Source: Parcubacteria group bacterium GW2011_GWA2_42_14 (lineage in GTDB: Bacteria; Patescibacteriota; Minisyncoccia; Sungbacterales; GWA2-42-14). Taken from it: a stretch of 64,000 nucleotides of DNA. Made by a program: the position numbers and the translations under genes. How positions within the stretch are numbered: the stretch's first letter is position 1; each line of letters opens with the position of its first letter. This document shows, piece after piece, positions 2,220 through 59,765 of this stretch. Below the pieces are notes generated by a model. The model worked only from the letters and a program-made list of their open reading frames with translations. It did not search any database and had not been told where the DNA came from. The stretch spans positions 72,958 through 136,957 of the forward strand of contig LCCV01000001.1 of NCBI GenBank assembly GCA_000998135.1, given 5' to 3'.

Positions 2220-3578
2220 TCAAAGTTCGTGTTTCTCGCCAAATCTCGGCGCTTCCGCCCAAATACCGAAATTATCTTTTACCGTCTGCGCCAAACTCAT
2301 AGACGCGTCCGGCTCGCCCTGCACCACAAAAACTTTCTCCAATGAATCCTTTGTTTTGGCAATAAGATTGGTAAGTTCCAATTCATCCGCGTGCGCCGAA
2401 TAACCGTCAATAATACGGATTTCGGCTCGGACCTTCACCATCTGACCCCTGATTTTCACTTCTTTGGCATGGTCCAAAAGCCGCCTTCCCAAAGAACCGG
2501 CCGCCTGCCATCCTACAATCAATAAAATACTCGCCGGGTCAGGCAAATATCTTACGGCATGGTGCAAAATCCTTCCGCCTGTCATCATACCGGCTCCGGC
2601 CAAAACCATTTTAGGCGCCGGAACATTATTTATCTTTTTGGAGTCATCTTTGGACTCCACGAATTTCAAATGCTTGAAATCGAAAAGATGCTTATGCGCC
2701 CTTAAAAGCATTTTTATTTCATCCTTGTATAAATCCGGGTGGCGCTTAAAAACTTCGGTAACGCGGACAGCCAACGGAGAATCCAAAAACACCGGTATGT
2801 CGGGGATTCTTTTAAATTCCAGCATGGTGTTGATTTCAAATAAAACATCCTGAGTTCTTTCCGTGGCAAAAACCGGCATCATCAGCGTTCCCTTTCTTCT
2901 GGTAACATCCTCAATGGCGCGCTCCAGCATCATGGTTTTATCCATAGTATGCTTATGAATCCTGTTTCCATAAGCTGATTCAATAATCAAAATGCTGGCG
3001 TTGCGGATATCATCATGCAGGGGCAATAAAACGCTCGTGGTGGAGCCGACATCTCCGGTAAAAATTATGATTTTGCCGCCAATACTAAATTTTATAAATG
3101 AAGAACCGAGAATATGGCCGGAATTTAAAAGTTCAAAATAGCCCGCGTCTCCTATTTCAATTTTTTGGTAATAATCAACTTGCTGAAAAAGTTTTAATAC
3201 TCCGCGCACATCATCAATGGAATAAAGCGGTTCTTCTTTGTGAAATTTACATTCTTTTTCCATCAGCATAAGGGCATCGGTAAGCACGACCTCCATCAAA
3301 TCCTTGGTGGCAAGGGTTGAATAAATTTTTCCCCTGAATCCGTCGTGGTACAGCTTGGGAATACGGCCGATATGGTCAATATGCGCGTGAGTGACAATAA
3401 GTATTTCTATTAACTTAGGGTCAAAAGGAAAAGAATTTCGGTTTTTTTCATCGGCAAAACGCGAACCCTGAAAAAGCCCGCAATCCACAAGAATTTTGTG
3501 ACCGTCTATTTCCAGCAAATAACAAGCGCCAGTTACTTCCTGCGCCCCCCCAAAAAAAGATAGTGAAACATTTTTCAT
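2220..3578 (-). CDS. MBL-fold beta-CASP ribonuclease (RNase J / CPSF-like RNA-metabolising metallo-beta-lactamase)
   Basis: HAHIDHIGRIP (HxHxDH) motif plus the beta-CASP C-terminal region. Start chosen at MKNVSLSFFGG (ATG at 3578) rather than the upstream ORF-track Met. Confidence 0.8.
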   Translation of the reverse strand: MKNVSLSFFGGAQEVTGACYLLEIDGHKILVDCGLFQGSRFADEKNRNSFPFDPKLIEILIVTHAHIDHIGRIPKLYHDGFRGKIYSTLATKDLMEVVLTDALMLMEKECKFHKEEPLYSIDDVRGVLKLFQQVDYYQKIEIGDAGYFELLNSGHILGSSFIKFSIGGKIIIFTGDVGSTTSVLLPLHDDIRNASILIIESAYGNRIHKHTMDKTMMLERAIEDVTRRKGTLMMPVFATERTQDVLFEINTMLEFKRIPDIPVFLDSPLAVRVTEVFKRHPDLYKDEIKMLLRAHKHLFDFKHLKFVESKDDSKKINNVPAPKMVLAGAGMMTGGRILHHAVRYLPDPASILLIVGWQAAGSLGRRLLDHAKEVKIRGQMVKVRAEIRIIDGYSAHADELELTNLIAKTKDSLEKVFVVQGEPDASMSLAQTVKDNFGIWAEAPRFGEKHEL

Positions 3579-3603
3579 AACTTTACTAACTACAAATAAA
3601 TAC

Positions 3604-3757
3604 AAACTCATGACTTGGGTAGGCACATCTTGCCACTACCGAATGGAATATGACCATGACAGCAATATTTCTGAAGAAAAACGGGAGTTATGCGGTCAAT
3701 TCAGAGCCGATAAGGACCCCTTTTGCGTTGAGGTGGCATAAAGCGCCTACCCATGAC
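3604..3757. repeat. ~150-bp element closed by 17-bp imperfect terminal inverted repeats (tcatgacttgggtaggc...gcctacccatgactcatga), sitting in the 5' leader of the beta-CASP gene
   Basis: Long-range complementary ends seen directly. Either a MITE-like insertion or a structured 5' UTR / ncRNA. Confidence 0.4.
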
Positions 3758-4148
3758 TCATGAATACTTTAAGTATAAATGAAATTCGTACATTCGTAAA
3801 AATTCGTTCCAAACCCGCCCATTTCAAATTAAGATAATTCGTAAATGAAAAGGGCTCCGAAGAGCCCTCTATGAGAAAGAATAAGTGCTTTATATTTTAT
3901 AGCAAAGAACTAAGTATGTTTCTCGGCCTAAAAGGCCTTGAAACGCAAACGTATACGTCGTATATTAATTATAGCATATTTGGGGAAAGTAAAACAGGAG
4001 TTATCCACAGCGCACGTTCAAAAACATGCTTTTTGAAAACGCTCCAAATTACCAAATACTGCTTCGCTTCTTAAAAAATTTGATTTTTTACACCATATTT
4101 TATACAGATAGAATATCAGCTCTTTTAAATTTAAATACGGAAAACGGC

Positions 4149-5165
4149 ATGAAAGCAATACGCGTTTTACTATTAGTTTTAGCACTTGCTGGATGCGCGG
4201 TTTTATATAAACCTCCTCCTGATATAACGCCAAAAACAGTTAACTTCAAAGAAGAAATTCCGATATTCTCATACAAAAAGGTACCGCTTAACAAAACAAT
4301 AACGCCCGCCTGGAATTATGGCTCAAAAACGCATGACGTATTCAATTTATCTTTTGATTCGGCCATGCCTGGAGAATCAATCAAGGCGGAATATTGGAAA
4401 AACAAAGCCCCCGGAAGAAAAAAACTGATTATAGTTCTTCCCATTGCCGACAGTACGCGCTTTCCCGGAGAACACTATACCAACGTAATGACATCGTGGA
4501 ACGGCAATACCGAATTCAATGTGCTTTTACTTGAAGACACCAGAAAAATTTCCTGGCTGGAAGAATTAAGAAATTCCGAAGACGAAAAAGAATTTCTTGG
4601 ATGGATGCGCATCGTCTCAATCGCCATAAAAAATTATGTTGTTGACACAAGACGGCTGATTGACTGGGCGGAAACGCGGCAAGAATTAGATTCTTTAAAT
4701 ATCGGCATTATCGGCGCCTCCATCAGTTCCAATTTGGCCGCCTTAATTATGGCCGCCGATTCAAGAATTAAAGCCGGAGTGTTTGACAAAGGCGGAGGAA
4801 GTTTTGCCGATTTATTCAGCTATTCAAAACAGCAGGAACTTAAAGAAAGCCGGGAACTTGTCATGAAAAAATTCAGCTGGACGCGACAAAAATTTGATGA
4901 AAAAATCCGTCCGATTTTACAACCGGTTGAAGCAATTAATTGGGCCGGAAGAATTAATCCCCAAAAAGTTCTTTTCTTAAACGCCAAATATGATACCTGG
5001 ATTCCCAAATTTTCCATTGAAAATTTTTGGAACGCTTTGGGCAAGCCGGAACGGATAGAACATAAAACCGAACATAAAACCGCTTTTCTCTTGTCGCTGA
5101 CCCCTTTCGGAGGCCACTACGCTGATTTCAAAATTTTTAACCATTTCCAAAAAAATCTTCAATAA
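4149..5165 (+). CDS. Lipoprotein, possible alpha/beta-hydrolase fold
   Basis: Start at MKAIRVLLLVLALAGC (lipobox LAGC). The ORF-track start at 4026 is an upstream in-frame extension without a signal peptide. Contains an IGIIGASISSN nucleophile-elbow-like segment. Confidence 0.6.
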   Translation: MKAIRVLLLVLALAGCAVLYKPPPDITPKTVNFKEEIPIFSYKKVPLNKTITPAWNYGSKTHDVFNLSFDSAMPGESIKAEYWKNKAPGRKKLIIVLPIADSTRFPGEHYTNVMTSWNGNTEFNVLLLEDTRKISWLEELRNSEDEKEFLGWMRIVSIAIKNYVVDTRRLIDWAETRQELDSLNIGIIGASISSNLAALIMAADSRIKAGVFDKGGGSFADLFSYSKQQELKESRELVMKKFSWTRQKFDEKIRPILQPVEAINWAGRINPQKVLFLNAKYDTWIPKFSIENFWNALGKPERIEHKTEHKTAFLLSLTPFGGHYADFKIFNHFQKNLQ

Positions 5166-5195
5166 AAGTAGCACGACATCGTGCTATTTTTCAAT
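5166..5195 (+). terminator. Rho-independent terminator (agcacgacatcgtgct + T-run)
   Basis: Hairpin immediately after the lipoprotein stop. Confidence 0.65.
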
Positions 5196-5319
5196 ATCTT
5201 TACGGGTTAGTGTATGAAGATTATGTCTTTGAAAAAGATACCTATCCAAAGCGGATTTTAGTTTTCTTGTATGGTAAACTCAGCAATATAAAAAGATGGC
5301 AGTTGCCACCCAAAATATT

Positions 5320-5670
5320 TTAGTCATAAAGAGAAACGAGCCGCCCTACTACAGTAGCGGTAAATTCTTTTGGAAACAGATAGGCCTGTTTGTAGCTTTG
5401 TGACGAATAATCGCGGTCATAGGGAAGGTGTTGTCTTTCTCCGACTGGTTTGCCGTGCTTTTCAACAAACTTCTGCAGTTTCACCGCTTGGTAGCGAGCG
5501 CGCCACACGCTCTTACCGCAAGAGAACTTCAAGTCAGCTGCATCATCGCGGTCGTGGCCCAACGGCATACCTCCACCCCCAAAATCATAGCGGTAATACC
5601 GCGTGAGAACTACCATGACCCCTATTGCCTGTTTCCGGGATTTTACGGTCTTTGCGCTCTTTGTTTTCAC
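5320..5670 (-). CDS. Hypothetical protein (GC-rich, GTG start, GAGG Shine-Dalgarno) inside the GC-rich island
   Basis: 116-aa ORF. Atypical composition relative to its neighbours; no recognisable domain. Confidence 0.4.
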   Translation of the reverse strand: MKTKSAKTVKSRKQAIGVMVVLTRYYRYDFGGGGMPLGHDRDDAADLKFSCGKSVWRARYQAVKLQKFVEKHGKPVGERQHLPYDRDYSSQSYKQAYLFPKEFTATVVGRLVSLYD

Positions 5671-5824
5671 TTTCCGTTCCTCTCAATTCAATTGGGAAGT
5701 AGCTAATATAATTGGTTGCATAAAGATAAAAACTTGTCAAGCGGTTCCGATTTTTCTCTTTCTGCTTTTTGAGAAAATTTTCTACAATAAAAATTAGTAA
5801 AAAGAATCAAAACTGAATTAAAAA

Positions 5825-5896
5825 CGTCCCCACGGGGACTCGAACCTCGATTTCAGCCTTCGGAGGGCTGCGCTCTATCCATTGAGCTATGGGGAC
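5825..5896 (-). tRNA. tRNA-Arg (anticodon CCG)
   Basis: Cloverleaf folded by hand: acceptor GTCCCCA/TGGGGAC, D-arm GCTC..GAGC, anticodon stem CAGCC/GGCTG with loop CTCCGAA (anticodon CCG), 4-nt variable loop, T-arm CGAGG-TTCGAGT-CCCCG with one A.C mismatch. No CCA is encoded. Confidence 0.8.
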
Positions 5897-5944
5897 ATAT
5901 CTTAACCAACAACTTACAACATACAACCCGCAACATAAAAAAGC

Positions 5945-11230: not shown

Positions 11231-11797
11231 ATGAATGAACAAATTATAACAACAACAAGGGCCGTTAAAACCAAACGCCTTGCCTACGCTCTTGCAAAAA
11301 AAATCCTAAAAAACCGCCATCAAAAACCTGCGATCATTATTGCACTTTCCGGCAATCTCGGCTCAGGAAAAACAACCTTTGTTCAGGGATTTGCCAAAGA
11401 ACTCGGCATCAAAGAAATTCCCAAAAGCCCCACTTTCATTTTAATGCAAATTTTTCCAATACCGCCTAAAAGCTATAAGCTAAAAGCTAAAAGCTTAATA
11501 CACATTGACGCCTACCGCCTAGAAAAACCGAAAGAACTTATACATCTCGGTCTGAAAGAAATTCTTCGCGACCCGCACAATATTGTGATAATTGAGTGGG
11601 CAGAGAAAGTAAAAGCACTATTGCCCAAAGATGCAATTTGGATATCATTTAGGCATGCCGGAAAAGATAAACGCCACATTGCTATAAAATCCCAATATCA
11701 AAAATTTGCCCCCTCGGCAAATTCCGGGGCTTCGCCCGTCGAAAGCCAAATAGTTGGCTTTCGACCCAAATCCCAAACAAAATCAAAATCCAAATAA
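11231..11797 (+). CDS. tsaE: tRNA threonylcarbamoyladenosine biosynthesis protein TsaE, with a C-terminal extension created by an in-frame repeat
   Basis: P-loop GNLGSGKTTFVQGFAKELGI and the HIDAYRL motif. The last ~35 aa (KSQYQKFAPSANSGASPVESQIVGFRPKSQT...) are encoded by the repeat at 11691-11778. Confidence 0.8.
   Translation: MNEQIITTTRAVKTKRLAYALAKKILKNRHQKPAIIIALSGNLGSGKTTFVQGFAKELGIKEIPKSPTFILMQIFPIPPKSYKLKAKSLIHIDAYRLEKPKELIHLGLKEILRDPHNIVIIEWAEKVKALLPKDAIWISFRHAGKDKRHIAIKSQYQKFAPSANSGASPVESQIVGFRPKSQTKSKSK
11691..11778. repeat. ~90-bp palindromic repeat element (three internal hairpins, e.g. gtcgaaagccaaatagttggctttcgac) inserted in frame in tsaE. A second copy lies in frame in the Mur ligase at 25165-25253.
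   Basis: About 90% nucleotide identity between the two copies. Both are translated as ...QKFA(P/F)SANSGASPVESQIVGF(R/Q)PKSQT. Confidence 0.8.
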
Positions 11798-11868
11798 CCA
11801 AAAACAATTTGAATTTTGAAATTTGAATTTATTTGGGATTTAGTGCTTGGGATTTTGGATTTTTTTCG
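11765..11868. repeat. Imperfect palindrome built from aaatcccaaa / tttgggattt motif repeats. A related copy lies at 48976-49097, after ruvB.
   Basis: Shared blocks ttgaattttgaaa and ttatttgggattt. Both copies overlap gene ends or starts. Confidence 0.6.
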
Positions 11869-15107: not shown

Positions 15108-15914
15108 TTGCCGGAGTTACCCGAAGCAGAAACAATCGTAAAATATCTTAGGCCAAAAATCCGCGGCAAGCGGGTTTTAAAATTATGGTCAAACACGCCG
15201 CGGCTTTTCAGACAAGGAAAAAATCTTCATAAAATAAGCATCCTGATAAAAGGAAAAACAATTTTGGATACAACCCGAGTCGGAAAAAATATTGTTTTAG
15301 CTTTAAACAATCAATATAATCTCTATATCCATCTTATGATGACGGGTAAATTATTATGGAATTATTCCAAATTGAGAGAACGCCATATAAGATTTTCTAT
15401 GGAACTTAACGGCAAAAACACCCTGGCCCTGCACGATATCCGCAAATTCGGATGGATAAGATTAATTAAAAAAGAAAATTTTTCCGACGCGCGCGTAAAC
15501 AAGGACGCGCTTTCTATTTCATTTGAAGATTTTAAAAACTCGCTTAATTTACGAAAAATGAAAATAAAAAACGCGCTTTTAAACCAAAAAATTGTCCAAG
15601 GAATCGGCAATATCTACTCGGATGAGATTTTATGGTACGCTGGAATAGAACCGCTCCGGCCCGCAAACTCCCTGAATAGCAAAAAAATAAAAAGAATTTA
15701 TTCGGCCATGAAAAAGGTATTAAAAATGGCGATCCGGAAAGGCGGCACAAGTATGCGCGATTACCGAAAACCAAACGGAAAAAAGGGCGGATACTACCCA
15801 ATCCGCAGGGTTTACCAAAGAGAAGGAGAAAAGTGCGCGCGTGACGGCGCAATAATTAAACGAATTAAAATAGGAGGAAGGTCTGCGCATTTTTGCCCCT
15901 ATCACCAGACATGA
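15108..15914 (+). CDS. mutM: Formamidopyrimidine-DNA glycosylase (Fpg/Nei family), TTG start
   Basis: N-terminal (M)PELPE catalytic proline; C-terminal zinc finger CARDGAIIKRIKIGGRSAHFCPYHQ. Confidence 0.85.
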   Translation: MPELPEAETIVKYLRPKIRGKRVLKLWSNTPRLFRQGKNLHKISILIKGKTILDTTRVGKNIVLALNNQYNLYIHLMMTGKLLWNYSKLRERHIRFSMELNGKNTLALHDIRKFGWIRLIKKENFSDARVNKDALSISFEDFKNSLNLRKMKIKNALLNQKIVQGIGNIYSDEILWYAGIEPLRPANSLNSKKIKRIYSAMKKVLKMAIRKGGTSMRDYRKPNGKKGGYYPIRRVYQREGEKCARDGAIIKRIKIGGRSAHFCPYHQT

Positions 15915-15971
15915 AACATGAAACCTGAAACACGAAAAAACTCTGGTTTTATGCTTTATGCTTCATGATTC

Positions 15972-16907
15972 ATGATATATGTACTTTACGGCCCGGACAC
16001 CTACCGAAGCCGGCAAAAATTAAAGGAAATAATTGACGGATTCCGCAAAAAATATGGTTCGACTTCGCTCACCACAGGCGGAAATTTAAGTTTGGAAAAA
16101 TTTGATGCCGAAGAAAATGACTTTTCAAAAATCTCCGCCGCCGCGGAAAACCAATCGCTTTTCCAGGAAAAAAAACTCGTGGTTATTGAACGATTTTTTA
16201 CCTCAAAAAAGGTCGCTTATGAAACACTGAAAAAGAAGTTAAAATCGTGGCAGGAATCAAAAATAAATGTCTTTATTTTTTGGGACGAAAACGTGGCCAC
16301 CAAAAAAGAATTTAAAGAATTTTTGAAATTCGCCGAAAAGTCGCAGGAATTCAAAGAATTAACGCCGCAACAAACAAAATTATTTTTGGAAAAAGAAATG
16401 CTTAATCGCAAATTACGCCTGTCGGAAAAAGAAAAAACGGCCTTAATGAACCGCTTTAAAAATAATCTTTGGGGACTTGCTAATGAATTGGATAAAATAA
16501 CGCTTGGCTCGAACCTATCAACAGAAATTATCCTTAATAAAGAAGAAAAAATTTATAATTTCCTTGACGCTTTGATAGAAAGGCGCATAAACACTCCGCG
16601 GCTGCTTCTTTCTTTATACGAGGCCGGGGCCGAGGAACTCTATATTTTTGCCGCCATAGTCAATTCTTTCCGAAATCTTCTTTTGCTGAAAAAATATGCC
16701 GATAAACCGGCGCTGCTTTCTAAAATTGAAAAAGAGTTCGGAATTCATCCATATGTTTTCAAAAAACTTTTAGCCCAATCGCAAAGATATGGCCTAAAAA
16801 CTCTTACCATAATTTACAAAAAACTGCTGGAATACGATATTGCTTTAAAACTCGGCAAAACAAAACTAGAGTATATAGTTTTTGACCTAATGAACAAAAA
16901 ATTATAA
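15972..16907 (+). CDS. holA: DNA polymerase III delta subunit
   Basis: N-terminal MIYVLYGPDTYRSRQKL, typical of HolA. 311 aa. Confidence 0.7.
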   Translation: MIYVLYGPDTYRSRQKLKEIIDGFRKKYGSTSLTTGGNLSLEKFDAEENDFSKISAAAENQSLFQEKKLVVIERFFTSKKVAYETLKKKLKSWQESKINVFIFWDENVATKKEFKEFLKFAEKSQEFKELTPQQTKLFLEKEMLNRKLRLSEKEKTALMNRFKNNLWGLANELDKITLGSNLSTEIILNKEEKIYNFLDALIERRINTPRLLLSLYEAGAEELYIFAAIVNSFRNLLLLKKYADKPALLSKIEKEFGIHPYVFKKLLAQSQRYGLKTLTIIYKKLLEYDIALKLGKTKLEYIVFDLMNKKL

Positions 16908-18534: not shown

Positions 18535-20583
18535 TCAAGGTTTTGAAATTTTCTTAATCTGATCCCTAATCCGCGCCGCTAACTCGAAGTTCATTTCCTT
18601 TGCAGCCCGCTTCATTTCTCTTTCCAGCGCTTTTAAAACATCTTTTTTCGGGCCTTGCGGAATCAACGGCGCCAACTCTTCCTCCTGACGCCCTTTTGCT
18701 TCTTCAAGCAGTGATTTTCTTATTTCTTTTTGAATTTGTTGGGGGGTAATGCTGTGTTCAGCGTTATAGTCAGCTTGAATTTGGCGACGACGTTCGGTTT
18801 CGCCCATCGCTCTTTTCATGGAATCGGTAACGGTATCTGCATACATAATTACTTCGCCGTTCAAATGGCGCGCGGCCCGACCGGTAATTTGTAAAAGGGT
18901 GCGCTCGTTTCGCAAAAATCCTTCTTTGTCTGCGTCCAATATCGCAATAAAAGAAACCTCCGGCAAATCAAGGCCTTCCCGCAATAAATTAATACCGACA
19001 ACAGCGTCATAATTTCCAAGACGCAGGTCTTTTAAAATTTCCGGCCGGTCAAGGGTTTTGATTTCAGAATGAAGATAAGTTGTTTTAATTCCCGCTTCGG
19101 CCAAATACTCGGCAATATCTTCGGCCAAACGCTTGGTTAAAGCCAATACAAGCGACCTCTCTTTTTTTGCAACGCGCTTTTTTATTTCGCGAATAACATC
19201 TTTGATTTGGCCTGCGGTTTTACGGACTTCAATTTTTGGGTCAAGAAGGCCAGTGGGACGGATTAGTTGCTCTGCTATCGCAACTTCCGACTTCCGACTT
19301 CCAGCTTCCAACTTTTTGCACACACTCATTTTTAGCTCGTAATCTGCTGGCGTTGCCGAAACATAAATAATCGGCCCGACTTTTTTGTTAAATTCCGGAA
19401 ATTTAAGAGGACGGTTATCTATTGCCGAAGGCAAGCGAAAACCGTATTCCACAAGGGTTTTTTTACGGGCAAAATCGCCTTCATACATTCCTCTTAACTG
19501 CGGAACGGTTGCGTGCGATTCGTCTATGAAACAGAGCCAGTTTTTGGAGACCGGGACTCCTAAGGAGTCCCGGTCTCCTTGTTGACCATAAGCATAATTA
19601 AAATAATCAATCAATGTATAAGGCGGGCTTCCCGGCTCGCGAAAAGAAAGGTGGCGCGAATAATTTTCAATGCCATTGCAATATCCAGTTTCTTTAAGCA
19701 TCTCCATATCAAAGTTGGTACGCTCGGCCAATCTTTGCGCTTCAAGAAGCTTTCCTGATTTTTTAAAATAGGCAACGCGCTCTTTTGCTTCCTGCTTGAT
19801 GTTTTTGATAGCAAGCTCCAGTTTTTGACGGGGAGTAACGAAGTGTTTGGCGGGGAAAATTTTAATAGGGTTTGGGGTATAGGGTTTAGGGTTTAGGGTG
19901 CCGACTTTTCTTACGGTAATTTTTTCAATGCTGTTGCCGGAAAATTCTACAACTATTATTTCTTCGCCGGAGGGAGAATGGATTTCAACCATATCTCCGC
20001 GGATACGGAATTCCCCTTGTCTGGGGTCAAAATCATTACGATGATACTGCAAAAGCACTAAATAGCGAGCAACTTCGCGTGGAGAAATTTTCTGGCCGAT
20101 TTTCAATTCGTTTGCCACTTTTTCATATTCTTCCGGGTCCCCAATTCCGTAAATGCAAGAAACAGAAGCAACAATAATTACATCATTACGAGTAAGTAAA
20201 CTTGCAGTTGAAGCATGACGCAAACCGTCAATCAATTCATTGATTTTGGCATCTTTTTCAATATAGGTATCGGTTGAAGGAATATAGGCCTCTGGCTGAT
20301 AATAATCATAATAAGAAACAAAATAATGCATCGCGCTCTCCGGAAAAAATTCCTTGAATTCCTGATACAATTGCGCGGCCAGGGTTTTATTGTGAGAAAT
20401 AACAAGCGTTGGTTTTTGCACGCGCTCAATCACGTTAGCCATGGTGAATGTTTTGCCCGAACCGGTAACGCCGAGGAGAGTCTGGCGCAACACCCCCATA
20501 TCCAAATTTGCCACGAGCTTTTCAATGGCTTGTGGTTGGTCCCCCATGGGTTTAAATTTTGAAACGAGTTTGAAGCTTGGCAT
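18535..20583 (-). CDS. uvrB: Excinuclease ABC subunit B (UvrB), carrying in-frame palindrome and simple-repeat insertions
   Basis: N-terminal KPMGDQPQAIEKLV; helicase motifs GVTGSGKT and FIDESHATVPQ; C-terminal UvrB/UvrC interaction region. Confidence 0.9.
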   Translation of the reverse strand: MPSFKLVSKFKPMGDQPQAIEKLVANLDMGVLRQTLLGVTGSGKTFTMANVIERVQKPTLVISHNKTLAAQLYQEFKEFFPESAMHYFVSYYDYYQPEAYIPSTDTYIEKDAKINELIDGLRHASTASLLTRNDVIIVASVSCIYGIGDPEEYEKVANELKIGQKISPREVARYLVLLQYHRNDFDPRQGEFRIRGDMVEIHSPSGEEIIVVEFSGNSIEKITVRKVGTLNPKPYTPNPIKIFPAKHFVTPRQKLELAIKNIKQEAKERVAYFKKSGKLLEAQRLAERTNFDMEMLKETGYCNGIENYSRHLSFREPGSPPYTLIDYFNYAYGQQGDRDSLGVPVSKNWLCFIDESHATVPQLRGMYEGDFARKKTLVEYGFRLPSAIDNRPLKFPEFNKKVGPIIYVSATPADYELKMSVCKKLEAGSRKSEVAIAEQLIRPTGLLDPKIEVRKTAGQIKDVIREIKKRVAKKERSLVLALTKRLAEDIAEYLAEAGIKTTYLHSEIKTLDRPEILKDLRLGNYDAVVGINLLREGLDLPEVSFIAILDADKEGFLRNERTLLQITGRAARHLNGEVIMYADTVTDSMKRAMGETERRRQIQADYNAEHSITPQQIQKEIRKSLLEEAKGRQEEELAPLIPQGPKKDVLKALEREMKRAAKEMNFELAARIRDQIKKISKP
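19546..19578. repeat. Perfect 33-bp palindrome (ggagaccgggactcc taa ggagtcccggtctcc) inserted in frame in uvrB and translated as GDRDSLGVPVS
   Basis: Seen directly. It lies just before the conserved FIDESH helicase motif. Confidence 0.8.
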
Positions 20584-23391: not shown

Positions 23392-23466
23392 TCAACCAAC
23401 AACCGACAACCCACAACTAACAACACATGTTGTAAGTTGTAAGTTGTAAGTTGTAAGTTACAAGGG

Positions 23467-23999: not shown

Positions 24000-25427
24000 A
24001 TGAATCAATTTTTTGGTATTTTTAAAAAAATAATTCCGCGGTCATTAGCGGTTTTTTTTCGACCTGCTTATCACTACATTTTAGCATTGCTGGCGGCAAT
24101 TTTTTATTGGTTTCCTTCACAAAATCTTATTGTTATAGGTGTTACGGGCACCAATGGCAAATCAACCGTTGTGGAACTAATTCACGCGATTTTAACCGAA
24201 GCCGGATTTAAAACCGGCTCAATTTCGTCCTTGCGGTTTAAAATCGGAAACAAAGAACAACAAAACAAACTAAAAATGACCATGCCGGGAAGATTTGCCT
24301 TGCAAAAATTCCTGCGGGAAAGCGTTTCCGCCGGATGCGAATACGCAGTTTTGGAAGTAACTTCAGAAGGAATAAAACAATACCGCAACAAATTCATAAA
24401 ATTTGATGTAGCAGTTATAACTAATGTTACTCCGGAACATATTGAATCCCACGGAAGTTTTGAAAATTACTTAGCGGCAAAAATGAAGCTTTTTGAACAG
24501 GTTTCGTGTTCAAGACCCGACCTTTTTCGTTCAAGGTCGGGTCTTAACGACGGCGTTTTAATCATCAACAGCGACGACCCCAATGCCCAAAAATTTCTGC
24601 AATTCCCGGCTAATGTAAAATATGTTTATAATTCGGGTTTTATTAGTATAGAAAAAAATGGTTCCACACAAAAAATCTCGCTCACCGAAAAACTGGTAAC
24701 TCCGGAAAGAATAAGTTTTAAACTGCAAAATACGGTAATTTCTTCGCGCTTAATCGGCGAATTTAATTTTTATAATATTTTAGCGGCGGTTTCAATAGCC
24801 ATCTCTCAAAATATCGGCTTGGAAAAGATAAAAACGGCTTTGGCAAAAATTTATGGAATTCCTGGCCGTCTTGAATTTGTGCAAAAAAAACCATTTGCGG
24901 TAGTAGTGGATTATGCTCACACGCCAGACGCGTTGCGTAAGGTTTACGAAACATTAAAAGAAACATGTCTCATGTCCCATGTCCCCTGTCGCATGATTTG
25001 TGTTCTTGGTTCAGCCGGAGGAGGCAGAGACAAATGGAAAAGGCCGGAGATGGGTAAAATTGCCGCGGAGTTTTGCGATGAAATTATTTTAACCAATGAA
25101 GACCCCTACGATGAGAGCCCTCTCGATATTATAAAAGATATTGAGAAAGGGTTCTCGTCGAAATCCCAAATCCAAAAATTTGCCTTCTCGGCAAATTCCG
25201 GGGCTTCGCCCGTTGAAAGCCAAATTGTTGGCTTTCAACCCAAATCCCAAACCATAATTAATAGGCGGGAAGCCATACGCGAAGCCATAAAATCGGCAAG
25301 GGTTGGAGATACCGTTATAATTACCGGCAAAGGCGCCGAGCCCTACATCATGGGTCCGAATAACACAAAAATTCCCTGGGACGATAGAAAAATAGTTCAA
25401 GATATATTGGAAAATGTAAAAAAGTAA
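24000..25427 (+). CDS. Mur-ligase-family protein (MurE/MurF-like UDP-N-acetylmuramoyl-peptide ligase) with an in-frame repeat insertion at 25165-25253
   Basis: P-loop VIGVTGTNGKSTV; Mur ligase C-terminal domain (VGDTVIITGKGAE). The same repeat is found in tsaE. Confidence 0.75.
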   Translation: MNQFFGIFKKIIPRSLAVFFRPAYHYILALLAAIFYWFPSQNLIVIGVTGTNGKSTVVELIHAILTEAGFKTGSISSLRFKIGNKEQQNKLKMTMPGRFALQKFLRESVSAGCEYAVLEVTSEGIKQYRNKFIKFDVAVITNVTPEHIESHGSFENYLAAKMKLFEQVSCSRPDLFRSRSGLNDGVLIINSDDPNAQKFLQFPANVKYVYNSGFISIEKNGSTQKISLTEKLVTPERISFKLQNTVISSRLIGEFNFYNILAAVSIAISQNIGLEKIKTALAKIYGIPGRLEFVQKKPFAVVVDYAHTPDALRKVYETLKETCLMSHVPCRMICVLGSAGGGRDKWKRPEMGKIAAEFCDEIILTNEDPYDESPLDIIKDIEKGFSSKSQIQKFAFSANSGASPVESQIVGFQPKSQTIINRREAIREAIKSARVGDTVIITGKGAEPYIMGPNNTKIPWDDRKIVQDILENVKK

Positions 25428-49469: not shown

Positions 49470-50003
49470 ATGATTAAACTAAATCCTGATGAAAAAATTT
49501 TAATGGTTATACGGCGTCACTGGTTCGTTATGGTCGGACCGGTGGTTCTTTTGATTATTTTGCTTGTTTTTCCTTCTATTTTTTTAACTACAGTTCCCTA
49601 TTTTTATCCGGCCCTAAACAATAGTCCAGAAATTCAACCAATGATTAATTTTTCTCTGGCTCTTTACATTTTAACCGTTATCCTGTATCTATTTATCTGG
49701 TGGTCTGACTATTATCTTGATATCTGGATAATAACCAATAAAAGATTGGTTGATATTGAACAAAAAGGGCTATTCAACAGGCACATTTCCGAAATGAATG
49801 TAGAAAATATTCAAAACGTCACATTGCAAATTGAAGGTCTAATTCCGACACTTCTTAAATTCGGCAACCTGCTGGTGGAAACGGCCGGAGAGGGACAGTT
49901 TAAAATAAAAGACGCGCCGAATTTGTATGAGGCAAAAGATTTACTTTTGAGATTTTCAAACCACCATACCAACCAACAACCCACAACCAACAACCCACAA
50001 TAG
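49470..50003 (+). CDS. Bacterial PH-domain (YdbS/YdbT-like) membrane protein
   Basis: Two N-terminal transmembrane helices then a bPH_2-like region. The C-terminal tail (QQPTTNNPQ) is encoded by (caacc)-type repeats. Confidence 0.55.
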   Translation: MIKLNPDEKILMVIRRHWFVMVGPVVLLIILLVFPSIFLTTVPYFYPALNNSPEIQPMINFSLALYILTVILYLFIWWSDYYLDIWIITNKRLVDIEQKGLFNRHISEMNVENIQNVTLQIEGLIPTLLKFGNLLVETAGEGQFKIKDAPNLYEAKDLLLRFSNHHTNQQPTTNNPQ

Positions 50004-50043
50004 GTGTTATAAGTTATTAGTTGTAAGTTGTAAGTTATGAGGA

Positions 50044-50787
50044 ATGTCCGGACATTCTAAATGGGCGCAAATAAAACACAAAAAGGCCTTGACCGACGCC
50101 AAGAAGGGAAAGGCCTTTTCCAAAATATCCAGAATGATTACGGTCGCGGTAAAAGAAAAACAAAACCGCGACCCCTCGACCAATTCCAAATTAAGAACCG
50201 CTATTGAAAAAGCAAGATCTCTTGGTATGCCCGGAGAAAACGTGGAACGGGCAATGGCCAAAGGACTTGGCGAAGGAAAAGAAGGAGAAGGGCTCAAAGA
50301 AGTTTTGTATGAAGCTTTCGGCCCTGAGGGAACAGCATTGATAATTGCCGGCATTACCGACAACAAAAACAGGACAACCGCAGAAATAAAACACCTTCTT
50401 TCCGAACACGGCGGGCGCTTGTCCGAAAAAGGAAGCGTGGAGTGGATGTTTAACCATGTCGCGGCATTTGATTTTAACGCGAAGGACTTCTTAAAAACAG
50501 AAGAGGCTGAGCTTTTTCTAATTGATGCCGGAGCAGAAGACATTTCTAAAAACGATTCATTAATGACGGCTTACGTATCCCCGCAATCATCAGATATTTT
50601 TAGAAAAAAACTTGAGGCCAAATCCATAAAACCCAAAGAAGAATATTTTGACTATATGCCCAAAAACAAACTCTCTTTATTAAATGAGGAAACAAAGCAA
50701 AAGGTAATCGGCCTTATGGATGCCCTGGATGATAATGATGACGTGCAGGAGGTTTATACCAACATAGAGATAGAACATGAAACCTGA
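50044..50787 (+). CDS. yebC: YebC/PmpR-family transcriptional regulator
   Basis: MSGHSKWAQIKHKK N-terminus. Confidence 0.9.
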   Translation: MSGHSKWAQIKHKKALTDAKKGKAFSKISRMITVAVKEKQNRDPSTNSKLRTAIEKARSLGMPGENVERAMAKGLGEGKEGEGLKEVLYEAFGPEGTALIIAGITDNKNRTTAEIKHLLSEHGGRLSEKGSVEWMFNHVAAFDFNAKDFLKTEEAELFLIDAGAEDISKNDSLMTAYVSPQSSDIFRKKLEAKSIKPKEEYFDYMPKNKLSLLNEETKQKVIGLMDALDDNDDVQEVYTNIEIEHET

Positions 50788-50848
50788 ATCATGTAACATG
50801 ATAGTTAAAAATTGTGTTTCCTGGTTCATGATTTATGATTCATGATTC

Positions 50849-51328
50849 ATGATTATTTTAGGAGTTGACCCCGGAACCACTACTGTAGGTTACTGCCTCT
50901 TGCAAAAAAACGGCAGAGCTCTTAAATTGGTTGAAGCCGGCGCGATTAAAACGGTGCCCAAATCGGAACAAGCGGAAAAAATCCTTATAATCTCCAATAA
51001 ATTGAAGGAAATAATAGATATCCACAGGCCAAGTATTTTAGCTATTGAAAAGGTCTTCTTTTTTAAGAATAATAAGACAGCGATGTCGGTTGCCGAAGCC
51101 AAAGGAGCCATACTCTTGACAGCCAAAAATTTAGGCCTTAAAGTGTATGAATACACGCCCCTTGAAGTAAAAATGGCTCTAACCGGCTACGGAAGAGCGG
51201 ACAAAAAACAGGTTGAATATATGGTTAAAAACGTCCTTAAGCTCGAAACAGCGCCCAAACTTGATGACATAACCGACGCTATGGCCATAGCCATTACTTG
51301 CGCCAATAGTATTGCCAATTTGCAGTAA
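50849..51328 (+). CDS. ruvC: Crossover junction endodeoxyribonuclease RuvC
   Basis: MIILGVDPGTTTVGY; catalytic Asp/Glu pattern. Confidence 0.9.
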   Translation: MIILGVDPGTTTVGYCLLQKNGRALKLVEAGAIKTVPKSEQAEKILIISNKLKEIIDIHRPSILAIEKVFFFKNNKTAMSVAEAKGAILLTAKNLGLKVYEYTPLEVKMALTGYGRADKKQVEYMVKNVLKLETAPKLDDITDAMAIAITCANSIANLQ

Positions 51329-55746: not shown

Positions 55747-56847
55747 TCATAAATTCCTAATCGGCATTAACACATATATCAAAGATTCATCCGTTTTGGA
55801 GCGGAGAAGGGCAGGAGAAGATTCCCCGGAAACTCCAATAAAGATTTCTTCGTCTTGAATGGATTCCAGACCGTCCAAAAGATATCGGAAATTAAAACTC
55901 AAATTCACCGGCTTACCTGTAAATTTTTTCAATTTTATTTTAGAACTCATGGAGCCAAGTTCTGAATTGGAAGACTCAACTGTTAAAAATTCTCCTGAAA
56001 ATTTCAAAATAATATCATTAAGCTTGCTTGATAAAACAGAAGCGGCTCTTATTTTCTGAATCAATTCAGATTTTTCAATAAGCGCGGTTGATTCAAAATT
56101 TTTAGGAATAATTCCTGCGTACTCAGGAAAAATTCCATCAATCAGTCGAGATGTTATAACTTGATCCCCTACAATAAATACAACCTGATTGTCGGAATAA
56201 GTAATAATAACCTCATCTCCTTCCTCAAAAAATAATCTAGCTAGTTCTTCAACTGTTCTAACCGGAACCACAAAAGACGATTTAGTTTCATCGGAACTTG
56301 CCAAAGTTATTGTTTTTTCAGCAAGACGAAAGGTATCTGTTGCAACCAACTTTAACTTTTTTCCTTCAATTTTTAAAAGCACACCTGAAATTTCCGGTTT
56401 TAATTCTGAACGGGAAACAGCAGTAATAACACTTTTAATTCCGTCAACTAATAATAAAAACGCGGAATTTAATTTTTTACCGCCTTTTATTTTAGGAATA
56501 ATCGGAAAATCTTTGGAAGGATTACCATTTATGGTTATTTTTGAATTTTCGGAATTAATTAAAAGTATATTATTCTTTTCTTCAATGATAATGTTTTCTT
56601 CTTGAATGGTTTGAATTACTGTTGAAAGAATTTTTGCCGGAACAGTTATTATTCCTTCCTGAACAACTTTACAGGAAAAATCAGATTCTATGGCCATTTC
56701 AAGATTGGTGGCTATAATAGAGCATTTTTTTCCTTTTGCTTCAATTAACACATTTCCTAAAATAGGAAGATTAATATTTTTTCCGGTAAACCTTTCTGCT
56801 TGTATTACAATATTTTTAAAATTATTTCTTAAGGAAATTATTTTCAT
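55747..56847 (-). CDS. dnaN: DNA polymerase III beta sliding clamp
   Basis: Three-domain clamp, 366 aa, immediately downstream of dnaA. Confidence 0.9.
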   Translation of the reverse strand: MKIISLRNNFKNIVIQAERFTGKNINLPILGNVLIEAKGKKCSIIATNLEMAIESDFSCKVVQEGIITVPAKILSTVIQTIQEENIIIEEKNNILLINSENSKITINGNPSKDFPIIPKIKGGKKLNSAFLLLVDGIKSVITAVSRSELKPEISGVLLKIEGKKLKLVATDTFRLAEKTITLASSDETKSSFVVPVRTVEELARLFFEEGDEVIITYSDNQVVFIVGDQVITSRLIDGIFPEYAGIIPKNFESTALIEKSELIQKIRAASVLSSKLNDIILKFSGEFLTVESSNSELGSMSSKIKLKKFTGKPVNLSFNFRYLLDGLESIQDEEIFIGVSGESSPALLRSKTDESLIYVLMPIRNL

Positions 56848-57112
56848 TTTTTTAAAGCTATATTTTATATTTATATATTTAAACTATTATTGTTATTAGA
56901 TATTCAATTTTTGTTAATTAGTATAAAAATCATTTATTTATTTCATTTTTTGATTTTTTATCTTGTGTTTAAGATATAAAAGATATTGTTGATAACTTAT
57001 ATATAAATTTTTAACTTATTTTATATATATACATTTTACGGATTAAATTAATAAGTGTTGCTCAGGAGATTACCATGTTTTTACTATAGTGATTAACATA
57101 TTTATCAACATA
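56848..57112. promoter_or_regulatory. Putative chromosomal origin (oriC): an extremely AT-rich dnaA-dnaN spacer with DnaA-box-like 9-mers (tgttgataa at 56987-56995; ttatcaaca at 57102-57110)
   Basis: Classic dnaA-dnaN context, a ~110-bp run of nearly pure A/T (a DNA-unwinding-element candidate), and near-consensus TTATC[CA]ACA boxes. Another box-like TTATCCATA lies upstream of dnaA at ~58541. Confidence 0.5.
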
Positions 57113-58504
57113 TTACGAAGTATACATTTTTTCTTTTATAATTTTTATTTCTTCTTCTAAATCCAAATTAGATTTAATATTAGACAATATTTTTTTATAA
57201 GCATGAATGGCCGTAGTGTGGTCTTTTTTTCCTATTTTTTCTCCAATAAAAGGAAAAGAACATTTTAATTCTTCTCTTAAAAGATACATGGCTATTTGTC
57301 TTGGTTTCACGACTTCTTTTTTTCTTGATTTGTTCAGTATTTCTTTTTCGCTCAATTCATAAAAATCAGCCACGGTTTTAATGACTTTTTTAGGAGTGAC
57401 AAATTTTCTCGGAGCATAAATTATTTGGCTTATAATTTTTTTTACATACTCAAGTTCGGGTACGCAATTATTCATTTTTGCCGTAAGAACTATACGGTTT
57501 AGCGCTCCTTCTAATTCTCTGATGTTATTTTTTATAGTTCTGGCAATATAATCAAGAATATCTTCCGGAATTACTATGCCGGTTTTTTCCATTTTAATTT
57601 TAAGAATCGTCAGTTTGGTTTCATAATCAGGTTCTCCTATGTCCGCAATCATACCTCCTTCAAAACGAGATTTGAGCCTAGCTTCCAGTGTCGCGATTGC
57701 CGCCGGGGGTCGGTCTGAAGATATTATTATTTGTTTATTTTTTTCATATAACGCGTTAAAGGTATGGAAGAATTCTTCCTGCATTTTTTCCGTCCTGGCG
57801 ATGAATTGAATGTCATCCATTATTAAAAAATCATAAGCCCGATATTTTTCTTTTAATTGATTCATTTCCTGGTTTTTTAGGGCTTCCACTATTTCGCCCA
57901 TGAATTTTTCGGAAGAAACGTATTTTACTTTAGCTTTGGGATTCTGTTTTATTATTTCGTTTCCTATCGCTTGTATCAAGTGTGTTTTACCTAGTCCCAC
58001 TCCGCCATATAAAAAGAGCGGGTTATAAATTCCCGGCTTTATTACTATTGACTTTGCCGCAGCATGCGCCAGTTCGTTAAATGAGCCCACGATGAAAGAA
58101 TCAAAAGTATATTTGGGATTGAGGCTTGTTTCAGGGTTTATATTCAGGTCTTTAAGTTCGAATTCGGAAGAAAAAGATATGTCGTTTGCTGGTTTTACGG
58201 AAACCCTGGCAATTGTAGGCAAACCGTATTTGGTGTCGTTTTTTTGTGTTGCAAGCTGTTTTGTTCCGATTACGTAACTCACTTCTTTTACTTGGGAATT
58301 TATATTTCTAACAGCTCTTAATACGAATTTATTGTATTTATTTTCCAGCCATTCTTTTACAAATCCGTTAGGAACGGAAACAGAAACCCTATGGCCGTCC
58401 ATTTCAATTGCAGAAGTGTCTTTGAACCAAGTAAGAAAGGCCGCCCGGCTTATATTGAGTTCTATTTCGGCCAAAGCCGTTTTCCATAAATCATTAAGCT
58501 CCAT
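57113..58504 (-). CDS. dnaA: Chromosomal replication initiator DnaA
   Basis: AAA+ motifs GGVGLGKTHL and LIMDDIQF; C-terminal DnaA-box-binding domain. Confidence 0.95.
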   Translation of the reverse strand: MELNDLWKTALAEIELNISRAAFLTWFKDTSAIEMDGHRVSVSVPNGFVKEWLENKYNKFVLRAVRNINSQVKEVSYVIGTKQLATQKNDTKYGLPTIARVSVKPANDISFSSEFELKDLNINPETSLNPKYTFDSFIVGSFNELAHAAAKSIVIKPGIYNPLFLYGGVGLGKTHLIQAIGNEIIKQNPKAKVKYVSSEKFMGEIVEALKNQEMNQLKEKYRAYDFLIMDDIQFIARTEKMQEEFFHTFNALYEKNKQIIISSDRPPAAIATLEARLKSRFEGGMIADIGEPDYETKLTILKIKMEKTGIVIPEDILDYIARTIKNNIRELEGALNRIVLTAKMNNCVPELEYVKKIISQIIYAPRKFVTPKKVIKTVADFYELSEKEILNKSRKKEVVKPRQIAMYLLREELKCSFPFIGEKIGKKDHTTAIHAYKKILSNIKSNLDLEEEIKIIKEKMYTS

Positions 58505-58680
58505 AATCTCTAATCAATCTCTAATTTTTCCGCGAATTATCCATAATTCGCGATTATTTGAGATATCTTATTAACGGGTAATTCGAGATTTTCAAAACAC
58601 CTTTGTATTATAAATTGAATACGCAATACGGCAAAATTTCATAAACTGAATAATATGTTGAGAGACTGTTAATAACTCAA

Positions 58681-58760
58681 CCGACAACTTATAACCTACA
58701 ACCAATAACACGTTTCGCCGTTTAGCTGTTATGGGTTGTCAGTTGTCAGTTGTTAGTTTA
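58681..58760. repeat. Palindromic (acaac...)n / (gttgt...)n motif repeat flanking rpmH on the 5' side. A partner lies at 58910-58968, with family members at 23393-23465, 49961-50037, 47914-47972 and 5897-5940.
   Basis: The left half is tandem caac/acaac-type units and the right half is their reverse complement (gttgtaagttgtaag). Confidence 0.65.
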
Positions 58761-58770
58761 TATTATATGT

Positions 58771-58908
58771 ATGTCTATCACGTATCAGCCAAAAAAGAGA
58801 AAAAGAAAAAAGGTTCATGGATTTTTGAAAAGGATGGCCACGCCGACAGGAAGAAGGGTATTAAACCGGAGAAGGGGGAAAGGGAGAAAGAAGATTACTG
58901 TGGTATAA
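58771..58908 (+). CDS. rpmH: 50S ribosomal protein L34
   Basis: Manual translation gives [45 protein letters not shown] (compare E. coli [44 protein letters not shown]). The ORF track lists a different, overlapping frame (58731-58913). Confidence 0.85.
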
Positions 58909-58975
58909 ACTAACAACTAACAACTCACAACCAACAATGCGTGTTGTAAGTTATGGGTTGTAAGTTACGAAAAGT

Positions 58976-59329
58976 TTGGCTCTTCCCAGGCAATTCAGAT
59001 TAAAAAGAAAAGACGTCAGAAATGTTTTTATGGGTTCGCGCAGATTTTCTTCTGTCATCGGCACTTTTTTTTTGAAAAAGAATGGTTTTTTGTTTAATCG
59101 GTTTGGTTTTGCCGTGCCGGTCTCAGTGTCAAAAAAATCCAACGCAAGGAACAGGATAAAAAGAATGGCGGTCGAATGGACGTGTGCGCATTTTCGTGAA
59201 GTTGCCGGCGGCTTTGATGTTTTGGTCATTTTCAAAAAAGAAGTTGTAAATTTGAACAAAAAGGAATTTTATAAGCATCTGCGGGCGTCTTTTATTAATG
59301 CAGGGATTTTTAAGGGCTCTGCTCGTTAA
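58976..59329 (+). CDS. rnpA: Ribonuclease P protein component (TTG start)
   Basis: Basic N-terminus with RLKRKDVRNVF; the conserved rpmH-rnpA-yidD-yidC gene order. Confidence 0.8.
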   Translation: MALPRQFRLKRKDVRNVFMGSRRFSSVIGTFFLKKNGFLFNRFGFAVPVSVSKKSNARNRIKRMAVEWTCAHFREVAGGFDVLVIFKKEVVNLNKKEFYKHLRASFINAGIFKGSAR

Positions 59330-59404
59330 TTAACCACTAACAACCTCTTGAATCGTTGCGAATCGCAAGCAAGATTTATTCGAAAAAAATCAAGGACAAA
59401 ATTA

Positions 59405-59671
59405 ATGAATTATCAGAGAAATATGTTTTTAGCAATCATTATTAATTTAATAAAATTTTACCAAAAAATATTTTCTCCAGACCACGGGATTTTTAAAAAT
59501 GTTTTTGGATATTCAAGGTGCAGATTTTATCCTTCTTGTTCAGTTTATACACTTGAAGCTGTCAGTCAATATGGACTTTCTCTCGGTATTATGTTATCGC
59601 TAAAGAGAATTTTCAAATGCAATCCATTCAATGAAGGAGGTTATGATCCGGTAGTAAGGCGATTCGAATGA
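59405..59671 (+). CDS. yidD: Membrane protein insertion efficiency factor YidD
   Basis: CRFYPSCSVY motif. Start at MNYQRNMF. Confidence 0.85.
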   Translation: MNYQRNMFLAIIINLIKFYQKIFSPDHGIFKNVFGYSRCRFYPSCSVYTLEAVSQYGLSLGIMLSLKRIFKCNPFNEGGYDPVVRRFE

Positions 59672-59765
59672 CTCAAATTTTGCACGCGAATGACTCGAAT
59701 ATTTATGGCGGGTTAGGTTGAGTTATTAGAATCATTCGGGTGTCATTTGTATATTAGAGTCGCTT

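Follow-up and report, generated by a model that had tools for sequence, protein, structure and literature searches.

A three-hairpin repeat set in heptanucleotide tracts and lying in frame within unrelated genes of Patescibacteria

Palindromic repeats lying in frame within genes were described in Rickettsia as Rickettsia palindromic elements (RPEs; Ogata et al. [quoted passage not shown] Tandem repeats of the heptanucleotide TAACTGA have been reported in Beggiatoaceae and Cyanobacteria (PMC4679880). Here we describe an element with three hairpins in a 64,000 nt stretch of DNA (64 kb, the window) from Parcubacteria group bacterium GW2011_GWA2_42_14 (contig LCCV01000001.1, positions 72,958 to 136,957), where it lies in frame within tsaE and murE. 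The genomes of Patescibacteria measure about 1 Mb and are thought to be poor in mobile elements, and full-text literature searches returned no description of such elements in this phylum. We consider the element to be probably a dispersed repeat of Parcubacteria-like Patescibacteria that is maintained at the level of the nucleic acid, is copied into heptamer tracts and is read through in tolerant loops or tails of proteins. This reading draws directly on the repeat itself, its structure and covariation, its multiple hosts, its use of three frames, the presence of empty sites, its position in a predicted surface loop and its conservation above that of the host gene.

The window contains two direct repeats of 92 nt, both on the + strand, at 11687–11778 (copy A) and 25161–25252 (copy B). 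They are 91% identical, in agreement with a preliminary description of this DNA which had reported a two-copy repeat of about 90% identity, and a 24 nt core occurs exactly twice in the 64 kb (0.00 expected from shuffles). Copy A, which has an AAATCCC-type left flank and a CCCAAATCCCAAAC right flank, lies in the open reading frame (ORF) 11231–11797 (+ strand, 188 aa). This ORF encodes TsaE (PF02367 over residues 13–149 and TIGR00150 over residues 20–154), with the TsaE domain ending at approximately residue 149–155 and the remainder being a tail encoded by the element; copy A supplies the last ~33 residues, and the translation ends in KSQYQKFAPSANSGASPVESQIVGFRPKSQTKSKSK followed by the stop codon. 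The second host, ORF 24000–25427 (+ strand, 475 aa), had been proposed to be a Mur ligase and is specifically MurE (TIGR01085, 370 bits, with Mur_ligase_M and Mur_ligase_C domains), in which copy B corresponds to residues ~388–418 and reads ...KSQIQKFAFSANSGASPVESQIVGFQPKSQT... in translation. Both copies are stop-free, in frame and in the same phase, as ...QKFA(P/F)SANSGASPVESQIVGF(R/Q)PKSQT..., and the predicted peptide across the insert, if translated, is ...QKFAFSANSGASPVESQIVGFQPK....

Each copy folds into three hairpins, with minimum free energies (MFE) of −33.2 kcal/mol for copy A and −31.7 kcal/mol for copy B (z of about −6), and none of 200 shuffled sequences folded as well. Hairpin H1 has an 8 bp stem and a 5 nt loop (stem arms 11703–11710/11716–11723 in copy A, 25177–25184/25190–25197 in copy B), H2 consists of GGGC-UUC-GCCC (11727–11730/11734–11737 and 25201–25204/25208–25211), and H3 combines a 12 bp stem, GTCGAAAGCCAA/TTGGCTTTCGAC, with a 4 nt loop (11738–11749/11754–11765 and 25212–25223/25228–25239), all on the + strand. 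The three hairpins had been noted previously, with the long stem given as a perfect 10 bp; we count 12 bp. Copies A and B differ at eight positions, with three in the left flank, two in the H1 loop, one in the H3 loop and one compensatory H3 pair, so that all five internal differences are either loop positions or a compensatory change from C-G to U-A. The element core comprises about 65 nt, made up of H1, the near-invariant centre AAUUCCGGGGCUUCGCCCG with the 4 bp H2, and H3.

Genome and metagenome collections were scanned with the 20 nt centre, which gave nine loci, with four of these being independent true homologues (L002 = L008, L004, L005 and L006). True copies scored 86–119 bits with the covariance model R1 (116.7 bits for copy A and 117 bits for copy B), versus 15–26 bits for chance matches to the 20-mer, which removed L001, L003, L007 and L009. 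The copy of L002, a Patescibacteria metagenome-assembled genome (MAG), is in frame within the gene for an 813-aa GT4 glycosyltransferase and shares the phase of the window copies, that of L006 directly follows the stop codon of a GARS-like gene in sense orientation, with a long heptamer hairpin after it, and that of L004 is located 64 nt downstream of a gene. L005 originates from a syntenic relative with a MurE that is 80% identical, and contains both the orthologue of copy B (murE site 2) and, as a BLAST comparison of L005 with the window revealed, another copy elsewhere in murE (site 1), at a position that is element-free in the window. Alignment of MurE homologues located a further copy at site 1 in L011 (86 bits; MurE 56% identical). 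An exhaustive HMMER search with the encoded peptide gave three true matches, P0001, P0242 (ribosomal protein uL3, with ~24 extra residues) and P0247, which is the leader of a prepilin-like gene (L018). The latter two and both copies of L005 are also within the 86–119 bit range. Not counting the orthologue of copy B in L005, the searches thus gave seven further copies, with those of L004 and L006 being located at gene 3′ ends. Additional copies in relatives, several of them intragenic in unrelated genes (murE site 1, the GT4 glycosyltransferase and uL3), were what the preliminary description had led us to expect.

Seven other HMMER matches (P0243–P0250) covered short stretches of the query only, and inspection of P0246 showed an NHL-type repeat protein in which 'RIQKFAPGS' matched by chance. 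A word-indexed search with tandem-doubled profiles returned P0001 only, and its negative outcome is uninformative because it missed a known member (P0003) in the same database, being insensitive to short inserts. The nearest named MurE and TsaE proteins are from MAGs of Sungbacteria, Giovannonibacteria and Nealsonbacteria, and no match to the element was found in the viral contigs, plasmids and phages searched. At the gathering threshold, Rfam 15 recognised only a tRNA in the window, and at E ≤ 10 the element region gave sub-threshold matches only (best 22 bits, with 95 required), chiefly to miRNA-precursor and other small-RNA models, which lie on the neighbouring heptamer hairpin or span the region. 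In L002, the same glycosyltransferase gene that contains the full element also has a solo, perfect H3-like hairpin in a linker (GTTGAAGCAAA-tgtt-TTTGCTTCAAC, 5515–5540, − strand), with a second small hairpin upstream.

The copies are read in all three sense frames. Those in tsaE, uL3 and the glycosyltransferase and that at murE site 2 use frame 0, and the copy at murE site 1 is read in frame +1 in L005 and in frame +2 in L011. The peptides encoded at site 1 are NPKSQNSPPRRIPGLRPSEANTFASDPNPK in L005 and NPKSEIRPLGEFQGFARQKQRHLLPTQNPK in L011, with the two copies differing by a one-base shift in each flank, and three further copies (L004, L006 and the L018 leader) are outside long ORFs. The use of three sense frames together with intergenic copies indicates that the conserved unit is a nucleic acid and not a peptide. 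A conserved protein module with secondary nucleotide similarity is the explanation one might draw from the window copies, the glycosyltransferase and uL3, which share both the frame and a peptide of the type ...KFA.SANSGASPV.SQ..GF.P.... We regard this as extremely unlikely, as it is refuted by the unrelated peptides made from two other frames at murE site 1, and the copies outside ORFs, the conservation of synonymous positions and the predicted disorder of the encoded loop also argue against it. In an alignment of seven copies, the 24 proposed pairs make up 168 cells, every one of which is a standard pair, with double changes at eight pairs and no one-sided changes; this level of covariation was reached by none of 500 shuffles, and sliding the partners abolished the signal. 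Extension to nine copies gave 211 of 216 cells as Watson-Crick pairs, and in L004 the shape of H3 is kept with quite a different sequence.

Orthologous proteins without the segment support insertion, as the preliminary description had anticipated. Two TsaE proteins of 72–75% identity (P0125 and P0126) end at 155–159 aa and lack the tail, and the tsaE-polA spacer of L017 contains a different heptamer hairpin and no element. At murE site 2 the element is present only in the window and L005, with homologues of 52–68% identity having short heptamer-derived peptides or other inserts instead. At site 1 it is present in L005 and L011, and the window has a (CATGTCC)x4.6 tract at this position (24964–24995, + strand). 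L012 has an uninterrupted (AAATCCG)x4 tract at site 1, which is the same unit that flanks the core in L011, and this represents either an empty or an excised site. Overall, the majority of MurE and TsaE homologues are free of the inserts. When compared with solved MurE structures, residues 388–419 correspond to only ~6 residues in Thermotoga MurE (4bub), after which the C-terminal domain resumes as had been claimed. The AlphaFold model of the window MurE (predicted template modelling score 0.84) has a predicted local distance difference test (pLDDT) value below 50 at residues 389–412, which link a helix to a strand in the C-terminal domain, and thus the insert is predicted to sit in a disordered surface loop, in line with the location expected earlier. 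The murE gene contains three inserts of nucleotide type, which are copy B, the site 1 tract and an independent hairpin with a perfect 13 bp stem at 24512–24545 (+ strand), encoding ...SRPDLFRSRSGL...; the latter is absent from most MurE homologues and coincides with the other low-confidence loop of the model (residues 172–182).

The insert could also be present in the gene and absent from the protein, either through ribosomal bypass, as with T4 gene 60 and the mitochondrial 'byp' elements, or through removal from the mRNA, with the flanking direct repeats serving as take-off and landing sites. The core is indeed flanked by direct repeats such as AAATCCCAA...AAATCCCAA, which may provide matched take-off and landing codons beside stable hairpins. 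We nevertheless judge this to be very improbable: every intragenic copy is open and leaves the frame behind it intact, whether in tsaE, at either site of murE (two genomes each), in the glycosyltransferase or in uL3, a property that would be unnecessary if the insert were skipped, and the H3 loop of L005 site 1 differs in such a way that it removes a stop codon present in that frame of copy A. There is also no stop codon behind the putative take-off site, and as for removal from mRNA, 92 nt is far below the size of group I or II introns and no Rfam match was obtained. An intein or intron was likewise rejected, since the element is too small and the insert is translated; an uptake signal sequence was rejected since the element is too long and too rare, and a TIGR or CRISPR-like array since the copies are single and not arrayed.

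Close to the element, contigs from short-read metagenomes are broken or mosaic (L010 and P0002), which is what an assembly or binning artefact would look like. The preliminary description had named such an artefact as fatal to its claim, but copies A and B differ at eight positions including a compensatory pair, and each recurs with its own flanks in independent assemblies (the murE copy in L005 and L010, the tsaE copy in L016). L016 had been considered as a diverged orthologue with tail, and this was dismissed as its identity to the window is 100% from 11591 onwards, so that it represents the same strain and is not independent evidence. The copies being one half of a template repeat/variable repeat pair of a diversity-generating retroelement was rejected as well, since the differences (T/A, A/T, T/C, C/T and G/A) are not adenine-specific and the window contains no reverse transcriptase, and together these two explanations retain hardly any probability. 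In the comparison of L010 (1–1140) with the window at 25160, the left edge of the element, the contig is 99.8% identical to the window rightwards and unrelated leftwards, where it has a TSP3-repeat gene, and this junction stems either from rearrangement at the element itself or from a chimera joined through a third copy elsewhere in the genome. A fold-back terminates P0002 just upstream of the element, and positions 71–430 of L016 are ~55–80% identical to 11231–11590 of the window over the 5′ half of tsaE, as a result of either a recombination mosaic or a chimeric assembly.

In every copy except that of L004, units of a single heptamer lie on either side of the core, and this heptamer is AAATCCC in the window and L005, AAATCCG in L011, AATTTCY in L006 and L018, and CYTCCGA in L002. 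At the 3′ end of tsaE, the three hairpins of copy A are nested in the 5′ arm of a large heptamer-repeat hairpin of ~180 nt (11685–11866, + strand; MFE −63 kcal/mol, z −5.7), in which the AAATCCC 5′ arm pairs with a TTTGGGATTT 3′ arm followed by a U-run, with polA starting at 11871. The same composite of element and heptamer hairpin is found in L006 behind a different gene. Period-7 arrays are enriched ~26-fold in the window (21 versus ~0.8 per randomisation), and most of these pair with each other as the arms of hairpins located where genes end (3′), with four being intragenic (one in tsaE, two in uvrB and one in murE). Perfect hairpins with a stem of at least 9 bp number 18, versus 1–6 in random sequence, with nine of these inside ORFs, including the 13 bp stem in murE and a 15 bp palindrome in uvrB. 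Other heptamers occupy the same two murE loops in the relatives L011, L012, L014 and L015, as (AAATCCG)x4, (ACCAGTT)x3 and (AAAGCRC)x4, and in some relatives site 2 contains other GC-rich hairpin cores with AAATCCG-type flanks, such as the duplicated CCTGCC-cgtc-cGGCAGG of L015, which suggests that cores embedded in tracts form a superfamily. The three-hairpin element is therefore one module of a wider phenomenon, and the one that is repeated within the window.

Within tsaE itself, a (CTAAAAG)x4 tract is present at 11466–11495 (+ strand), in a loop that has long low-complexity inserts in the TsaE proteins of other Parcubacteria. The uvrB gene (− strand) has three in-frame inserts, comprising an (ACCCTAA)x5 tract at 19866–19899 (LNPKPYTPNP), the perfect 15 bp palindrome at 19546–19578 (GDRDSLGVPV) and a (GTCGGAA)-type tract at 19281–19314 (LEAGSRKSEV). 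Long hairpins with tandem-heptamer arms were observed at nearly every gene 3′ end or intergenic spacer, with the heptamer differing per locus (for example CAACCAA/GTTGTAA and ACATGAA/TTCATGA), and these include the hairpins at 15909–15976, 23393–23465, 49970–50042, 50774–50854, 58678–58758 and 58908–58979, among others. L015 also contains an intein in an RtcB RNA ligase gene (3214–5922; Intein_splicing, with a faint LAGLIDADG match only).

The element is better conserved than the genes that contain it. At murE site 2, 89 of 92 positions are identical between the window and L005, with a perfect run of 77 nt from H1 through the right flank, versus 76% for the rest of murE. At third codon positions, 29/30 are identical inside the element and 243/428 outside (Fisher P = 3e-6). 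Similarly, 83 of 91 positions are identical between L005 and L011 at murE site 1, versus 64% in the rest of the gene (P = 8e-9), even though protein identity is 55% and the element is read in two different frames. This may reflect either nucleotide-level purifying selection in place or recent entry from a shared pool, and on either reading the sequence of the element is more constrained than an essential gene. The label 'selfish', which the preliminary description applied to the RPEs that it invoked, is weakened for the element by this, since orthologous copies that are much better conserved than their host point to nucleotide-level constraint or a very recent spread.

A functional cis-acting signal under purifying selection, with its presence in coding loops being tolerated, is an alternative explanation, and such a signal could be bound by a protein with affinity for RNA or DNA, could govern the stability or processing of the mRNA, or could be an antisense small RNA. 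It is favoured by nucleotide conservation that in two independent pairs far exceeds that of an essential host gene and is seen at third codon positions as well as despite a frame change, by the perfectly kept pairing with compensatory changes in the seven-copy alignment, and by the element lying, both in the window and in L006, within terminator-like hairpins at the 3′ ends of genes. The intergenic heptamer hairpins are by comparison replaced and not conserved between the window and L005. Against this, there was no Rfam match even at E ≤ 10, there are only two copies per 64 kb in functionally unrelated genes, and a scan for promoters and terminators found no such site belonging to the element. 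Furthermore, presence varies among close relatives, with murE site 1 occupied in L005 and not in the window, and therefore no gene depends on the element. We consider a primarily cis-acting role to be a genuine possibility that falls short of being probable, and it overlaps with the reading as a dispersed repeat, as an exapted repeat could be both.

Orientation bears on the same question. Six informative copies (A, B with its orthologue at L005 site 2, L005 site 1, L011 site 1, L002 and L006), each found in a way that favoured neither orientation, all lie in sense direction relative to their host or upstream gene (binomial two-sided P ~0.03), as would suit a cis-acting signal, while L004 is located between convergent genes and is ambiguous. 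Stop avoidance does not explain this sense bias, because antisense insertion also leaves two of the three frames open. In the nine-copy alignment, all five stem mismatches, which occur in L011 and L018 as the two most diverged copies, are A.C on the sense strand, corresponding to G.U or G.T on the antisense strand, and this argues against a cis-acting signal in the mRNA. GC skew turns at approximately 57 kb, which makes the antisense strand the lagging-strand template for both window copies. The sense bias and the antisense-compatible mismatches point in different directions, in a very small sample. The neighbourhood of the replication origin (55747–60494) has dnaN and dnaA on the − strand, followed on the + strand by rnpA, yidD, yidC and a Jag-like R3H gene, with the dnaA-rnpA spacer packed with heptamer hairpins.

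On the reading as a dispersed repeat, a core of ~65 nt inside tandem tracts of AAATCCS-type 7 nt units makes up the unit of ~92 nt seen in the window, and we envisage that the core has been copied into heptamer tracts at many loci. The tracts may serve as landing platform, since units of the same heptamer flank the core on both sides and an uninterrupted tract is present at the empty site. Where a tract lies in a coding loop or before a stop codon, the ribosome would read the insert as a disordered loop or tail of ~30 residues in a frame set by the flanks, and only copies that are stop-free and of a length divisible by three would survive. The hairpins would be the selected feature, and bases added to or lost from the flanking tracts may shift the frame of the core with the gene remaining intact, as in L005 versus L011. 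We infer that spread may proceed through heptamer homology, by gene conversion or template switching at replication forks, or alternatively that a trans-acting enzyme recognising single-stranded DNA hairpins may do the copying.

Several observations weigh against a dispersed repeat of this kind. None of the ~60 ORFs of the window encodes a parent insertion sequence or transposase, a Y1_Tnp, RAYT (REP-associated tyrosine transposase) or TnpA-type enzyme, or a reverse transcriptase, and the copy number is low (two per 64 kb), with no transposition event observed. The copy of L004 is without heptamer flanks, and tracts are thus not obligatory. The invariance of the centre is partly by construction, as L002, L004 and L006 were retrieved by an exact match to it, and in the independently found copies of L005 site 1, L011 and L018 the centre matches at 19/20 positions. 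Conservation above the host gene is explained no less well by a functional cis-element than by a selfish element, and the A.C mismatches fit poorly with selection on a sense mRNA, though the informative copies are all in sense orientation.

A more far-reaching proposal, which we put forward tentatively and consider rather unlikely to hold, is that heptamer tracts and cores constitute a lineage-specific system that keeps adding sequence to terminator hairpins and to the surface loops of essential proteins (MurE, UvrB, TsaE and uL3), within which the core is a nucleic-acid signal under stronger purifying selection than its host genes. The core could then be recognised by a protein on the antisense or lagging-template strand, or be exchanged horizontally among co-occurring groundwater Patescibacteria. 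If true, such a system of tracts and cores would represent a new way for protein loops to evolve and for cis-elements to spread in ultra-small bacteria. In these genomes, genes for peptidoglycan synthesis, tRNA modification, the ribosome and DNA repair contain a structured repeat and are not destroyed by it. Through inserts of this kind, protein families become inflated and fragmented and short-read assemblies break where the inserts begin or end (as in L010 and P0002), and the inserts explain low-confidence loops in the protein structure models of this phylum.

The protein-coding palindrome, as described for Rickettsia and Coxiella, is hereby extended to a very different phylum. The element resembles the RPEs in being a short, hairpin-forming palindrome dispersed in a small genome, in unrelated housekeeping genes as well as in intergenic DNA, and with translated extra segments that fit the fold of the host protein. 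It differs from them in its occurrence in Patescibacteria instead of Alphaproteobacteria, in its length (65–92 nt versus ~100–150 nt), in being set in heptamer tracts, in lacking terminal inverted repeats, and in having orthologous copies that are more conserved than the host gene; RPEs have a conserved peptide in a fixed frame, whereas the element uses three sense frames with unrelated peptides. The likeness holds at the level of behaviour. The parallel with RPEs drawn in the preliminary description accordingly stands for the hairpins, the in-frame position and the unrelated genes, whereas the frame shared by the two window copies is not a property of the family. Its claim of novelty for a reduced genome does not stand, as Rickettsia genomes are also reduced, and applies instead to the phylum and the architecture.

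Like MITEs, the element is a small, non-autonomous, structured repeat that is sometimes found in ORFs and extends or modifies proteins, but MITEs are defined by having terminal inverted repeats plus target-site duplications that come from a parent insertion sequence (IS). The ends of the element are direct heptamer repeats (AAATCCCAA...CCCAAATCCCAAA), with inverted repeats present as internal hairpins only, and hence it lacks the terminal inverted repeats of a MITE. Direct repeats of 9–13 nt flank the core in most copies and are units of the heptamer tract, with none in L004. A hairpin unit and the absence of terminal inverted repeats are shared with the repetitive extragenic palindromes (REPs) and bacterial interspersed mosaic elements (BIMEs) associated with RAYTs and with IS200/IS605-derived palindrome-associated elements, which have a specificity for strand or orientation, and REPs are also located at the 3′ ends of genes in transcripts. 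REPs differ in being 20–40 nt, extragenic and high-copy, versus three hairpins in 65–92 nt with intragenic copies and two copies per 64 kb. In the comparison with IS200/IS605, the mismatches are of G.T type on one strand only, that of the lagging-strand template, in a very small sample.

The heptamer tracts themselves resemble known heptanucleotide repeats, to which the STRR (short tandemly repeated repetitive) heptamers of cyanobacteria also belong, in being short arrays of a 7 nt unit that are strongly over-represented and mostly intergenic, with polymerase slippage having been proposed for their origin. They differ in that the heptamers described here are locus-specific, form the complementary paired arms of hairpins, occur in frame in essential genes and host cores. 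The concept of a palindrome carried within coding sequence hence has precedent, while the phylum, the use of three frames, the heptamer-tract platform which enables reading in any frame, and nucleotide conservation above that of an essential host gene are new.

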